Source of the DNA: a bacterium
Lineage (GTDB): Bacteria > Hinthialibacterota > Hinthialibacteria > Hinthialibacterales > Hinthialibacteraceae
Length of the DNA stretch: 64,000 nt
Assembly (NCBI GenBank): GCA_963662285.2
Contig: CAXXMV010000006.1
Location: forward strand, 1,760,001 to 1,824,000
Direction of reading: 5' to 3'
Shown here: in pieces, positions 8,812-16,070 of the stretch
Numbering within the stretch: the first letter of the stretch is position 1
Layout: every line of letters starts with the position of its first letter
Notes under the pieces: generated by a model
Told to the model about the DNA's origin: nothing
Databases searched by the model: none
What the model saw: the letters and a program-made list of their open reading frames with translations, nothing else
Position numbers and translations under genes: made by a program

Positions 8812-11800
8812 ATGAAAAAACTAATTGACAAGTTTATCCATCAATTAATAAAAATAGACAACGTGACGGTCAGTTTCGGATCGTACCGGTTTCGCGTTTT
8901 CGTTCTGTCTGGTTTGATTTTATCCATTATTATAGTATGTCTTTTGGGTAGGTTTACCCTGGAGCAAAACAAGAAAAGAGTTTTGACCGGTGTCGGTGAA
9001 AATCTCAAGGCGGTTGTAGCAACAGCCAATGAACGGCTTAACCTATGGGTAGAGCAGAGAACATCTCTAGTCGATCTCCTGGGACGCGATCCTGAACTAG
9101 TAGAGATAACCAAGCGCCTTCTAGCTGTTCCTGTCAACCGTGAAGCTCTTTTAGCCTCTTCTGAATTACAGGAGGCGCGTGATTTTTTCAAGAATAATGA
9201 TAAAATTTTTGCTAATATAGGCTTTTTTATTATTAGTCCCGATCATATCAGTATTGGATCAATGCGGGATACTAATATTGGAATCCGAAATTTAATCTCT
9301 TCTCAAAGACCGGATCTACTTAAACGGGCATTTCAAGGCGAAGTAATGTTTGTGCCGCCAATCCAGTCTGATGTTGCTTTAGTGGCAACCTCTAAGTCCG
9401 GGGGGAGCAAAAATCAATCCACCAAATTTTTCATCGGACCTATCAGGGATTATAATGGTGAAATTATTGCCGCCATGACTTTACGGATTGATCCCACCAA
9501 AGATTTCTCTCAAGTCCTTCAAGTCTATGGAATGCTTCAGACGGGTGAAACCTATGCTTTTAACCAATATGGAGAACTTCTTTCAGAGAGCCGCTTTACG
9601 GATCAGTTACGTCGTATCGGGCTGATTGACGAGAATCAGGGTAGCGCCCTGAATGTTCAAATTCGCGATCCTGGAGTTAATATGGTAGAAGGGTATCATT
9701 CTGAATTAGAAAGATCCCAACAACCATTTACCCGCATGGTTGCCAGCACGCTCCAATTGAAAGAGCAAGTGGAAATAGGGGAGTATAGCGGGCACTCTGA
9801 AATAGAGATTGATGTAGAGGGATATCGGGATTATCGAGGTGTTCCGGTGTTCGGCGCCTGGCTCTGGAATGCTGAACTGAGATTCGGAATAGCGACGGAA
9901 ATCGATTCAAAAGAAGCTCTTGCGACCTACTATATGACGAGGTTGACGATTTTCATTGTTTTGGGATTTACACTGATATTATCAGTTATTGGAACATTGT
10001 TTGTCCTTATTGTTGGTGAAAGAACTAGCAAAGCCTTGATCGCTGCCAGGGATAATCTGGAAGATAAAGTTAAAGAGCGTACTGCTGAACTGGAAAATGC
10101 TCATGAGTCTATAAAACAAAGCGGGAAAAAATTTCGGGCGATTTTTGATCAGACCGTACAATTAATGGCTGTGCTTGATACAAAGGGAAATCTATTAGAG
10201 GCAAACCGTGCAGCACTTAAACTGGCTGGTACAGAAGAATCCTGCGTGGTTGGGAAACCGTTTTGGCAGGGTCCTTGGTGGCGCCATTCGGAAGAGGCTC
10301 AACATGCCATACAAGAATCCATCCAGCAAGCGGCCAATGGCGAATTTATCCAGTTTGAAACCACTCATCCACTTCCAGATGGGACTGAATGCAACATTGA
10401 TTTTACATTAACTCCTGTAACAGATGAAGAAGGTAAAATCATTTTCTTACTCCCTATGGGTCATGACATAACCGAGCGAAAGCAAAAAGAAAAGTTACAA
10501 CAATTAAACTTAAAAATTAGTCAGTCTCTAACTGAATCCAATGTTCTTCAGAAAATGTTGCAATCATGCGCGGAATCCATGGTGAATTCTCTTCGTTCTG
10601 TATTAGTCAGGATATGGATTTATAACGAACATGATGCAAAGTTGGAATTACAAGCCAGCGCTGGTATTCATACTCACATAGATGGCGATCATGGACTTAT
10701 TCCTATAGGACAGGGAAAAGTAGGCAAAATCGCCCAACAACGTTGCGTATTTCGCAGTAATGATATTGCTAATGATCCTCTAATCGCAAATCCAGAGTGG
10801 ATTATTAAACAACGATTAACTGGTTATGCTGGAATACCTTTGATTTTTGAAGAAAAATTAGTCGGGGTGCTTGTACTGTTTGCTCGAAGAGCGCTGGACG
10901 ACGATGATATAAATTCACTAGAATCAGCCTGCCATAACATCAGTGTTGCCATTGATCGAAAAAAGGCCGAAGAGCGATTAGTCTCTCGTGAAAACCAATT
11001 TCGAAACCTTATTGAATCGGCGCCGGACGCAATGGTTATTGTGAATGATCAAGGGACTATCAATATGGTAAATGGTCAAACCGAGCGTTTATTTGGTTAC
11101 GATCGTGCAGAAATCGTTGGTCAAAAGATTGAATTCCTTATACCGGAAAGATTTAGAAAAGATCATGTAGGTATGCGTGATTCATATATTCATCATCCAA
11201 TCTTATTACCGATAGGTTCCGGTAAAGACTTCTACGCACTAACCAAAGATGGTCGTGAGGTTTCCATTGAAATCAGCTTAAGCCCTATTAAAACTGATGA
11301 TGGATTGCTGGTAATAAGCACCTTACGAGATGTTACCGAGCGCAAACGTATGGAAAAGGAACTATCCAATGAACGCGAACGGCTGCAAGAAATACTCGAT
11401 ACCAGCCCGGTCGGTGTTGCGATTACTATCGACGGAGTCGTGCGCTTTCTCAATCATCGAATGGTCCAAATCACTAATTTACATGTCGGCTGTCTAGTGG
11501 AAAAGTCTTATGTGAATCCGGATGATAGACATCGTTTAATCGAAATGTTTAAAGAATCCGGTGTTATTCATGATTATGAAGCGCAATTATATGGTCCGAA
11601 TCAAGAAATTCGCGATTTAATGTGCACTTTCATGAATACTGAATATGAAGGAGAAATAGGCATTCTCGGATGGGCGGTTGATATCACCGAGTTGAAAAAA
11701 ACTGAGAATGAATTACGGGAAAAGTTTGATGAACTGGCGCGTTTTAGAAATATGGCGGTAGGCCGGGAGCACAAAATGATCGAATTAAAAAAAGAGATCA

Positions 11801-11850
11801 ATGAACTTTTAGTAAATAACGGGCTGCCTGAAAAATATAAGATCCATTGA
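8812..11850 (+). CDS. Membrane sensor: TM-Cache-TM-PAS-GAF-PAS-PAS, no enzymatic output domain
   Basis: TGETYAFN, YRDYRGVPVFGAW (Cache-type); LEDKVKERTAEL S-helix; PAS ends HDITERK, RDVTERK, VDITELK; GAF; no HisKA/GGDEF; ends GREHKMIELKKEINELL. Confidence 0.85.
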   Translation: MKKLIDKFIHQLIKIDNVTVSFGSYRFRVFVLSGLILSIIIVCLLGRFTLEQNKKRVLTGVGENLKAVVATANERLNLWVEQRTSLVDLLGRDPELVEITKRLLAVPVNREALLASSELQEARDFFKNNDKIFANIGFFIISPDHISIGSMRDTNIGIRNLISSQRPDLLKRAFQGEVMFVPPIQSDVALVATSKSGGSKNQSTKFFIGPIRDYNGEIIAAMTLRIDPTKDFSQVLQVYGMLQTGETYAFNQYGELLSESRFTDQLRRIGLIDENQGSALNVQIRDPGVNMVEGYHSELERSQQPFTRMVASTLQLKEQVEIGEYSGHSEIEIDVEGYRDYRGVPVFGAWLWNAELRFGIATEIDSKEALATYYMTRLTIFIVLGFTLILSVIGTLFVLIVGERTSKALIAARDNLEDKVKERTAELENAHESIKQSGKKFRAIFDQTVQLMAVLDTKGNLLEANRAALKLAGTEESCVVGKPFWQGPWWRHSEEAQHAIQESIQQAANGEFIQFETTHPLPDGTECNIDFTLTPVTDEEGKIIFLLPMGHDITERKQKEKLQQLNLKISQSLTESNVLQKMLQSCAESMVNSLRSVLVRIWIYNEHDAKLELQASAGIHTHIDGDHGLIPIGQGKVGKIAQQRCVFRSNDIANDPLIANPEWIIKQRLTGYAGIPLIFEEKLVGVLVLFARRALDDDDINSLESACHNISVAIDRKKAEERLVSRENQFRNLIESAPDAMVIVNDQGTINMVNGQTERLFGYDRAEIVGQKIEFLIPERFRKDHVGMRDSYIHHPILLPIGSGKDFYALTKDGREVSIEISLSPIKTDDGLLVISTLRDVTERKRMEKELSNERERLQEILDTSPVGVAITIDGVVRFLNHRMVQITNLHVGCLVEKSYVNPDDRHRLIEMFKESGVIHDYEAQLYGPNQEIRDLMCTFMNTEYEGEIGILGWAVDITELKKTENELREKFDELARFRNMAVGREHKMIELKKEINELLVNNGLPEKYKIH

Positions 11851-14900: not shown

Positions 14901-16070
14901 AATTTATCTGGATTCCTCTCAAAACCTGTTACTCCATCAACCATGCTGGATACAATCATGAATGCTTTTGGGCATGAAATTGTCCGCGATGCCAAATCAA
15001 CTATTCGTACATCCGATAGTCGCGAAATGACTAAAAAAATGCGAGGCGCCCGTATTTTGCTTGTCGAAGACAATGAGATTAATCAAGAATTGGCCATGGA
15101 ACTTCTATCAAACAGCGGCGTTTTGGTCGATCTTGCCAATAATGGACAAGAAGCGCTGAATAAACTTAAGGATAATGAATATGATGGAGTATTAATGGAT
15201 ATCCAAATGCCTGTTATGGATGGATATACGGCTTCAAGTGAAATCCGGAAGAATCAGCAATATAAAAACCTTCCCATCATAGCAATGACGGCCAATGCCA
15301 TGGCTGGGGATAGAGAAAAAGCTCTTGAAGCAGGAATGAACGACCATATTGCAAAACCTATTGATGTAAATGATATGTTCTCCACTATGACTAAATGGAT
15401 CACTCCCGCCAAACCTGTCGATATGCCTGAATCAGATAATCATGAAGATGAACAAGACGGCATTGTTATACCTAAGTTGCCTGAAATAGACGTCGAAGCT
15501 GGTCTGAAAAGAATCCAGCATAACAAGAAATTATATCGAAAACTGCTAATCAAATTCCGGGATAGCCAGCGTGATTTTGTATCCCGGTTTAAAGAAGCGA
15601 ATAGTAGCAGCGATGCTGAAGCAGCGACGAGATGTGCGCATACTTTGAAAGGAGTAGCAGGCAATATTGGAGCGACCAATATTCAAAAATCAGCTGAATT
15701 ATTGGAATCCGCATGCAAGGAAAATGAATCCGAATATGATATCCGGACTCTTCTTGATGACGTATCAATTGCTTTAACTCCTGTGCTCGAAGGTCTTTCA
15801 GTTCTTAATGAAGACGAGCCGGAATGTGAAGAAGGAAAAATAGATATAACAAAAATTCTTTCATTTCTCTCTAAATTACGTGAATTATTGGAGGATGATG
15901 ATACCGAAGCGGCAGAAATCATTGATTCATTAAACAATCAGCCCGGGCTTACAAAATTTAAATCAAATCTTCAAAAACTTTCAAGTTTGATCGATAAATA
16001 TGAATTTGAGGAGGCGCTTGAATCATTAAATGCCCTTGAAAAATCAATAAAGGAATCAACATATGAATGA
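11940..16070 (+). CDS. Hybrid histidine kinase: PocR-PAS3x-HisKA-HATPase-REC-REC-HPt
   Basis: PocR ([17 protein letters not shown]); [24 protein letters not shown]; two REC domains (LMDWKMP, LMDIQMP); HPt [13 protein letters not shown]. Confidence 0.93.

Follow-up and report, generated by a model that had tools for sequence, protein, structure and literature searches.

Two adjacent genes of a Hinthialibacterota bacterium encode an output-less membrane sensor and a soluble hybrid histidine kinase, and each product carries one of two helical motifs whose pairing across genomes is conserved, follows a set order and is nearly exclusive. The genes lie within a stretch of 64,000 nucleotides (positions 1,760,001 to 1,824,000 of contig CAXXMV010000006.1, assembly GCA_963662285.2), referred to here as the window. 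The sensor ends in a helix with a GRE signature (the GRE helix, or GRE tail where it ends the protein), and the kinase contains a helix with an LNxxED signature immediately before its HisKA domain. We consider it on balance likely that the two genes encode a cognate, divided sensor-kinase in which the GRE helices associate with the LNxxED-type helix of the kinase. Sensor and kinase would then be joined by a previously undescribed helix pair, a docking arrangement proposed here from sequence comparison and comparative genomics.

In the mechanism that we propose, the order along the chain would be GRE helix, flexible acidic linker, optional PocR domain and LNxxED helix, with the chain of the window divided in the linker. 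The dimeric GRE helices of the sensor would bind non-covalently to the LNxxED-type helix of the kinase, and the resulting mixed helical bundle would pass the state of the Cache, PAS and GAF domains to autophosphorylation of the kinase at its DHp domain. The signal would then continue to a REC/Hpt relay encoded downstream.

The sensor, the kinase and their helices

An earlier note on this DNA had described an output-less sensor with PAS and GAF domains beside a soluble PocR/PAS hybrid kinase, and open reading frame (ORF) calls, Pfam matches and hydropathy agree with that description; the motif positions that it gave were all correct to within a few bases. The features of the gene pair, in window coordinates, are as follows.

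8812..11850, + strand: output-less membrane sensor, 1012 aa, with a transmembrane (TM) segment, a weak Cache-like periplasmic region, a second TM segment, PAS, GAF, PAS, PAS and the GRE tail (ORF call, Pfam, hydropathy)
11695..11847, + strand: GRE tail, aa 962-1012, KKTENELREKFDELARFRNMAVGREHKMIELKKEINELLVNNGLPEKYKIH, the first row of alignment A1; a predicted coiled-coil helix that keeps the heptad phase of the last PAS and closes with a G..P..Y cap at the C-terminus
11851..11939, + strand: intergenic spacer, 89 nt, with GAGG 8 nt before the kinase ATG (sequence and terminator scan)
11940..16070, + strand: soluble hybrid histidine kinase, 1376 aa, with PocR, a helix, three PAS, the LNMMED helix, HisKA, HATPase, REC, REC and Hpt
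11988..12464, + strand: PocR domain, kinase aa 17-175 (PF10114, E 8.7e-44), of a subfamily with a fused GRE helix upstream in relatives
12495..12638, + strand: post-PocR helix, kinase aa 186-233, a degenerate LNxxED-type segment running into an S-helix-like stretch with an ERT signature (matched by eye)
13767..13874, + strand: LNxxED helix, kinase aa 610-645, the best genome match to the helix profile, running straight into the H-box
13860..14057, + strand: HisKA (DHp), kinase aa 641-706 (PF00512, E 3.2e-22)

In the sensor, Pfam places PAS_4 at residues 445-558, GAF_2 at 579-715 and PAS at 729-841, with further PAS stretches (three of them matched by PAS_8), and finds no HisKA, GGDEF, MCP, HATPase, kinase or cyclase domain; its dCache_1 match is weak and sub-threshold (E 0.004, 17 bits vs a cut-off of 45). 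A hydropathy scan gives sensor membrane segments at residues 24-52 and 374-406, and no convincing TM segment in the kinase. The sensor C-terminus reads ...FRNMAVGREHKMIELKKEINELLVNNGLPEKYKIH (equivalently ...DELARFRNMAVGREHKMIELKKEINELLVNNGLPEKYKIH or ...KFDELARFRNMAVGREHKMIELKKEINELLVNNGLPEKYKIH), directly followed by the stop codon, and the G of GRE is residue 984, at nucleotide 11761. With 97.9 bits, this sensor is the top GRE match of its genome, and it lies about 1.9 kb from the kinase helix on the same strand.

In the kinase, the PocR domain scores 149.6 bits against a curated cut-off of 23.9 (155.4 bits in the genome scan), and both HisKA (641-706) and HATPase (753-865) are present. The motif SAMLNMMED precedes HisKA, its LNMMED starting at residue 622 (nucleotide 13803), and the helix is the top profile match of the genome (36 bits, and 51.7 bits in the phylum scan described below). 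The second, LNxxED-like motif after PocR occupies residues 192-202 (nucleotides 12513-12545), and KERT can be read at residues 221-224. A terminator scan listed no terminator-like hairpin in the 89-nt spacer, and the two genes are probably co-transcribed.

The GRE and LNxxED helices as a genomic pair

A profile of 15 tails (A1), scored against 1.84 billion representative proteins clustered at 50% identity, matched 13,495 clusters from both Bacteria and Archaea at E<=1e-3, with 3,189 still matching at E<=1e-10. The earlier note had stated that both motifs recur, and they do so far beyond chance. A scan of one genome per species confirmed at least 452 GRE places, the best 80 of which lie in Desulfobacterota, Chloroflexota, Bacteroidota, Planctomycetota, Verrucomicrobiota, Nitrospirota, Acidobacteriota, Proteobacteria and methanogenic Archaea. 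The same note knew no assigned function for either motif, and database searches agree: the isolated GRE and LNxxED helices gave no Pfam-A match even at E<=1 beyond sub-threshold coiled-coil noise, and no NCBIfam match, and a PDB sequence search with the tail profile returned nothing (best E 0.17). Neither motif nor their pairing is described in the searchable literature, a search that covered papers outside subscription journals and supplementary files.

The pairing is seen in the genome of the window itself, where the GRE profile matches two ORFs only, the window sensor and a 1061-aa ORF on a second contig (C8). In the C8 paralog the GRE helix is internal, PocR follows about 30 residues on, and then come QRQAALSLMEDARRAE, PAS and a kinase. 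This genome encodes just two PocR domains, those of the window kinase and the C8 paralog, and the same two kinases give its two best LNxxED-profile matches among 79 HisKA matches. As a separate observation, the N-terminus of the C8 paralog (G000:C8, ORF start near 1355223, L001) has CLKCH, a CXXCH-like motif, before a membrane segment, and could be a c-type haem sensor resembling DUF3365/Tll0287; the partner kinases of loci L024, L055, L076 and L111 likewise contain Tll0287-like domains.

The order of the two motifs is regular as well. Scored with a profile of 49 segments that was itself built from matches in these same loci, an LNxxED helix (consensus RRAALNLMEDAxxAR) lies downstream on the same strand in 57 of the 79 loci with a C-terminal GRE helix, and in 47 of the 58 whose downstream sequence extends for 4.5 kb or more. 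The 194 kb of sequence upstream of tails gave no match, and all 62 LNxxED domain matches around tails are on the + strand, so that the co-occurrence expected by the earlier note is both strong and directional. The motif is in the very next ORF of 25 loci. Among the 80 of 82 candidate downstream ORFs that were scanned with Pfam, about 32 encode histidine kinases, 15 a stand-alone CheR and one a CheB-CheR fusion, the rest being varied. Several partner kinases, among them those of L037, L041, L046, L052, L053 and L077, have no sensor domain and start with the LNxxED helix a few bases past the tail stop codon; the partner in L037 is a 319-aa kinase after a gap of 7 nt.

Whole genomes were scanned too. 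A GRE helix forms the C-terminus in 79 of the 80 loci and in 149 of the top 150 representatives, samples biased by ranking on likeness to a profile of mostly C-terminal tails; the unbiased sample, 35 genomes of the window's phylum, differs in this respect. Eight of these genomes contain 12 GRE helices, four C-terminal (the window, G010:C77, G028 and G019) and eight internal, and 10 of the 12 are followed by PocR, an LNxxED helix or both. An alignment of 36 LNxxED helices (A4), run over the same genomes, gave six matches at E<=0.0102, all 0.6-2.1 kb downstream of a GRE helix, and two weaker partial matches (E 0.03-0.04) in genomes with no GRE helix. Five whole genomes from other phyla each held exactly one GRE and one LNxxED match, at one locus; these had been picked since both motifs had already been seen there, and what is new is that no further copies occur. 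Five more (G040-G044) were picked since no partner helix had been seen, and gave the following counts.

G040: GRE 1, LNxxED 0
G041: GRE 5, LNxxED 2
G042: GRE 1, LNxxED 1
G043: GRE 2, LNxxED 1
G044: GRE 2, LNxxED 0

Two of these LNxxED matches (G041:C33 and G042:C32) are linked to a GRE helix, and over the phylum and ten-genome scans together 13 of 15 LNxxED matches adjoin one.

Close relatives of the window tail were collected by a word-indexed search with sensor residues 958-1012 (E<=1e-3), which matched 132 proteins, 120 of them listed. Nearly all of those listed are from Desulfobacterales, with solute-binding and PAS domains and no output domain; P0053 alone has another domain type, PocR. 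The motif lies within 35 residues of the C-terminus in 119 of the 120, and the C-terminus is exactly KYKIH and then stop in 92 of 119. When the search was limited to longer proteins, seven matched and none had a kinase domain. Since 126 of the 127 tail-bearing relatives listed lack a kinase domain, the sensor is not a truncated kinase.

The GRE helix is about 45 residues long, continues from the last PAS domain and ends with the G..P..Y cap. Invariant columns of A1 are F, RE, K, N, G and Y, with G or D preceding RE, and the conserved last residues read KYKIH or KYRIVE. Between the PAS motif DIT and the G of GRE the spacing is 27 residues in 43 tails, 34 in five, 20 in one and another value in six, with DIT missing within 60 aa in 30 tails; by these spacings the helix is judged to be in heptad phase with the preceding PAS. 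A coiled-coil reading L-F-A-R-M-L-I-L, with a and d positions assigned by eye, predicts that the invariant Arg occupies a core d position. Sequence comparison shows that the GRE helix is conserved and portable as a module. A reading of GRE as a degenerate HisKA_3 H-box was dropped, as no profile matched.

Many relatives hold both helices in one chain, and a stand-alone sensor plugging into a kinase and one protein divided at a linker are therefore descriptions of the same junction. A second, internal GRE helix is present in 24 of the top 150 representatives. In 15 of these PocR follows 30-80 residues on, and then a helix R.AAMSLAEDA..AR.E..Y...LE.LV..RT, the clear counterpart of window kinase residues 192-224; in five an LNxxED helix follows directly after a linker of 20-45 residues (P0138, P0139, P0147, P0166 and P0249); two continue into a new membrane segment and two into unassigned sequence. 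In the PocR alignment A2 the window post-PocR helix aligns with RxAAxSLAEDAxQAR of the fusions, and the indels are of 7 or 14 residues, which are whole heptads. A variable, acidic linker, predicted to be disordered, separates the two helices, and comparison of these proteins shows that fused and divided forms interchange there. The LNxxED-to-H-box distance among relatives is 23, 30 or 37 residues, and the LNxxED helix keeps heptad phase with the PAS domain or DHp His that it leads into.

The partner of the tail and rival explanations

If the tail docks on the kinase, two lines of comparison name different partners for it: the layout of the fused proteins favours the PocR module, and the matching of subtypes the pre-HisKA helix. 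Across 57 pairs, the identity between tails co-varies with that between their partner helices (Mantel r 0.378, a value reached by none of 5000 permutations). The tails nearest to that of the window are those of L004-L007 (73% identity) and L010 (66%), and their partner helices are 76-82% identical to the window pre-HisKA helix, in keeping with the pairing that the earlier note had supposed. None of these loci has PocR, and all keep the SAMLNMMED helix before HisKA, which is the feature common to their pairs and that of the window. L010 is from a cultured isolate, Desulforhopalus vacuolatus DSM 9700, which has the same sensor and kinase as neighbours. Its sensor is 36% identical to the window sensor over 1020 aa, a match that takes in the periplasmic region and the terminal KYKIH, and its kinase is 40% identical to the window kinase over 1151 aa, starting at window residue 234, with a short membrane anchor in the place of PocR. 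From this match the window kinase looks like a D. vacuolatus-type kinase to whose N-terminus a PocR module has been added. Because orthologous pairs without PocR share that helix, the partner of the tail is most probably the pre-HisKA LNMMED helix, as judged from these comparisons, the alternative being the post-PocR helix or PocR itself.

The origin of the pair may be separate from that of its surroundings. The window tail scores 102 bits against A1, and the other 11 GRE helices of the phylum score 65 bits or less. As the closest relatives of the pair are Desulfobacterales pairs (L010 and L004-L007), it may be a horizontal acquisition that was later combined with a local PocR module.

Several results weigh against docking between the two helices. 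No LNxxED helix was found in the sequence examined for 22 of the 79 loci; the GRE tails of G040 and G044 have no LNxxED match anywhere in their genomes; and the LNxxED matches G041:C188 and G043:C6 are unlinked to any GRE helix. Because some tails have no detectable partner and two LNxxED matches are unlinked, the GRE-LNxxED link is strong and not absolute. The LNxxED profile also shares its origin with the loci on which it was scored, and operon co-inheritance alone could yield both subtype co-variation and gene order without contact. Charge complementarity, which the earlier note had invoked as basic and acidic docking surfaces, is retained in sign, with a net charge of +2 for the GRE tail and -5 for the LNMMED helix; it is modest and weaker than implied, and the post-PocR helix is +3.

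Structure predictions favour neither side. A complex of two copies of kinase residues 1-240 (alignment A2) with the 51-aa tail (A1), run without controls, gave ipSAE values of 0.18 and 0.12 vs a mark of 0.32. An AlphaFold2 monomer of the fused C8 segment from a shallow alignment (A3, eight rows) reached pLDDT 73 and pTM 0.56; it predicts PocR and the C-terminal helix with confidence, whereas the GRE helix has pLDDT 53-68 and the linker is below 50. The PocR-less fused segment of P0139 (A5, also shallow at five rows), likewise run as a monomer, was modelled as two long helices with pTM 0.32, so that neither of the two natural fusions gave confident packing of the helices in AlphaFold2 models. 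Foldseek found no PDB match for the C8 model at E<=0.001, and a weak likeness to GAF, CodY and PAS folds only.

The strongest rival, which we regard as possible and rather doubtful, takes the two motifs as module boundaries only, GRE closing a PAS array and LNxxED opening the module that follows, with the sensor acting otherwise, for instance by PAS-PAS hetero-oligomerisation or co-localisation. The variable, disordered linker at which proteins are repeatedly divided or fused is what such a boundary would look like, the co-inheritance of operons would account for co-varying subtypes, and the models lack confident packing. The two helices are also homologous, and their first halves run in register: a BLAST of the last 164 sensor residues against the kinase aligns the exit helices, sensor 946-995 with kinase 584-634 (37% identity, E 3e-4), and the motif begins 27 residues after DIT in both proteins. 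Both could therefore be ordinary PAS exit helices. However, generic linkers would be common among the 79 HisKA matches, whereas the motifs occur once or twice per genome and together, both in this genome and in the five from other phyla. The operons with CheR described below keep both motifs despite two genes between them, and the sensor-less kinases of L037, L046 and L077 have no PAS domain with which a sensor PAS could pair.

It is unlikely that the tail docks instead on PocR, as a peptide ligand free in the window and tethered in relatives, with the LNMMED helix uninvolved. The PocR domains of the phylum fall into two subfamilies, and eight of the 12 GRE helices of the phylum are fused 35-80 aa upstream of a PocR of the window's subfamily. 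Seven of the nine members of that subfamily have a fused GRE helix upstream and an AAxxLAEDA helix downstream; of the other two, that of the window represents the split form and L105 has neither helix. The preference for PocR after internal GRE helices elsewhere, the opening of the next gene in the window with PocR at residue 17, and the same split in L047, where the tail is followed by a protein with an N-terminal PocR, all suit such a ligand. On the other side stand the D. vacuolatus pair and L004-L007, which keep SAMLNMMED and have no PocR, the 11 loci of the other PocR subfamily of the phylum, none with either motif, and the N-terminal PocR of L105, with no GRE helix nearby. A stronger version, in which the tail always pairs with PocR, was rejected, since PocR is found in only 6 of the 80 loci and orthologous pairs lack it.

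Within the GRE-linked PocR subfamily (window 11988-12464, alignment A2), Cys56, His60, Cys70 and Cys92 are invariant, in CTDFHR...C.RC.ESD...Y.C.NG..D. Because of these invariant Cys and His residues, the sequence suggests that the subfamily binds a metal or cofactor and is not a simple small-molecule pocket.

Reading of the tail by a third protein (CheR, a protease or a localisation factor), without kinase contact, is quite improbable. It would fit the CheR genes directly after GRE loci, 15 stand-alone and one fused to CheB, and the conserved extreme C-terminus, KYKIH or KYRIVE, which recalls the pentapeptide tether of chemoreceptors. The four CheR matches of this genome (C6:16878, C6:479525, C8:685630 and C8:695315) are nevertheless all outside and far from the window (C6:1760001-1824000), internal GRE helices have no free C-terminus, and the operons with CheR keep an LNxxED helix about 4.3 kb past the tail.

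These CheR-type operons occur in Bacteroidota, Chloroflexota and other phyla (L009, L012, L013, L018, L019, L023, L032, L034, L035 at 5455-12149, L058, L059, L064, L073, L075 and L080; also L033). Their order is a GRE-tail PAS sensor, a stand-alone CheR, a 4HB_MCP-HAMP-GAF hybrid kinase, and then a REC-LNxxED-PAS kinase or an HD protein. As no chemoreceptor lies within these stretches, CheR may act on one of the non-MCP proteins of the operon.

That the sensor is a decayed remnant of a kinase broken by a stop codon or an assembly error, a notion to which fused forms in the same genome and phylum lend some colour, is hardly credible: the tail ends as in more than 100 relatives, most of them stopping at KYKIH and nearly all without a kinase domain, the kinase has its own ribosome-binding site and N-terminal PocR, as do L012, L047 and P0253, and D. 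vacuolatus shares the two-gene layout.

Related signalling elements, wider occurrence and significance

The closest described element to the GRE helix is the S-helix, which, in the accessible part of its description (PMC1592074), has a conserved ERT signature with a polar Arg in its central heptad and stands nearly always between two signalling domains of one chain. Both are parallel coiled coils of about 40 residues beside PAS, GAF, PocR and MEDS sensors, with whole-heptad spacing and a polar Arg at core d (in the inferred register, for GRE), and the GRE tail, like the S-helix, appears to span about five heptads in phase with flanking domains. The tail differs in its signature, GRE..MIELK..N in place of ERT, and in its position, as it ends the protein or precedes a disordered linker. 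In the window kinase, the ALKLADEA segment is immediately followed by a true ERT S-helix, LIKERTSDL, and LNxxED segments occur N-terminal to an ERT helix or without one. Neither the GRE nor the LNxxED motif is named in the accessible part of PMC1592074.

HAMP domains offer a possible working analogy for a mixed four-helix bundle, with two conserved helices and a Gly/Pro connector between input and output. The GRE and LNxxED helices are about twice as long, however, and their connector of 20-80 aa is variable and can hold PocR or a gene boundary; the HAMP profile (PF00672) matched neither protein, nor the helices taken alone, even at E<=1. PocR itself (PF10114) is a described family of which kinase residues 17-175 are a clear member, and the flanking GRE and LNxxED helices mark one PocR subfamily only. 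Published split histidine kinases reportedly divide the kinase core, with phosphoacceptor and catalytic parts on separate proteins. In the window the core is whole and the division falls between the sensor array and the kinase; what is shared with the accessible accounts of split kinases (PMC3591291; Hik36-Hik43, PMC7656254) is a sensor-kinase function spread over two polypeptides encoded side by side.

Chemoreceptors carry a C-terminal, NWETF-like pentapeptide that tethers CheR and CheB. The GRE tail resembles this tether in its conserved extreme C-terminus after a helical signalling region and in the CheR gene next door in 16 of the 80 loci. It differs in having no NWETF-like aromatic pentapeptide and no MCP domain, and with no CheR near the window the sensor does not class as a CheR-tethered methyl-accepting protein. 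The window pair does have the features that define the GRE-tail/LNxxED-helix pair, namely the invariant F, RE, K, N, G and Y and a downstream LNxxED helix on the same strand.

Downstream of the kinase lie further genes of a phosphorelay, all on the + strand.

16063..20594, + strand: downstream phosphorelay genes, with overlapping or close starts (ORFs and Pfam), comprising the next four
16063-16431, + strand: REC (ORF and Pfam)
16456-17526, + strand: REC-HD_5 (ORF and Pfam)
17516-19858, + strand: REC-HisKA-HATPase-REC-Hpt (ORF and Pfam)
19863-20594, + strand: REC (ORF and Pfam)

Other GRE loci differ in what follows the tail. A second split pair in a genome of the same family (L111, G010:C77:8500-16500) starts with a beta-propeller (Reg_prop/Y_Y_Y) sensor that ends in a GRE tail. 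Its Tll0287-PAS kinase carries two LNxxED helices in tandem, and a gene for a cytochrome bd oxidase comes next. A KaiC-like double ATPase is the product of the gene after the tail in two loci (L040:2887-4338 and L050:5327-6979), and an LNxxED-like helix lies about 3.1 kb downstream in L050. Sensors with GRE tails, in L112 (G028:C3:412000-419500), L113 (G019:C91:4500-12500), L059:9758-10312 and L060:6149-6859, stand directly upstream of genes for B12-binding and URO-D-like methyltransferase proteins, an arrangement that suggests control of corrinoid-dependent methyl transfer; one such sensor has a MEDS domain. Several proteins without enzymatic output have PocR or an LNxxED helix at the start and a GRE tail at the end (P0053, of 592 aa, P0205, P0253, L012:4726-6162, L047:766-2316 and L059:9024-9713), the two motifs of that in L059 lying 36 residues apart in apparently one helix. 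These relay proteins fit a logic of socket and plug.

A broader proposal can be offered tentatively, with less confidence than the pairing in the window: that GRE and LNxxED are a universal portable plug and socket between separate proteins in more than 10,000 clusters of Bacteria and Archaea. Through it, output-less sensors, including MEDS, PocR, solute-binding and beta-propeller types, would feed kinases non-covalently, sensors could be linked into chains, and methylation might tune the contact in CheR operons.

Coiled-coil signalling linkers are already known, and what would be new here is their use across a chain break. Many proteins annotated as PAS domain S-box proteins, thousands of them, have no output domain; the GRE tail marks such proteins, and the conserved LNxxED helix marks kinases or relay proteins encoded beside output-less sensors. 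As the cultured Desulforhopalus vacuolatus DSM 9700 carries the pair, the idea is directly testable. If the helices bind, the partners of orphan sensors would be predictable from sequence, and the wiring of the large multi-kinase networks of anaerobes would be easier to explain. Such binding would also provide synthetic biology with a natural, modular way of attaching an input to a kinase without gene fusion.

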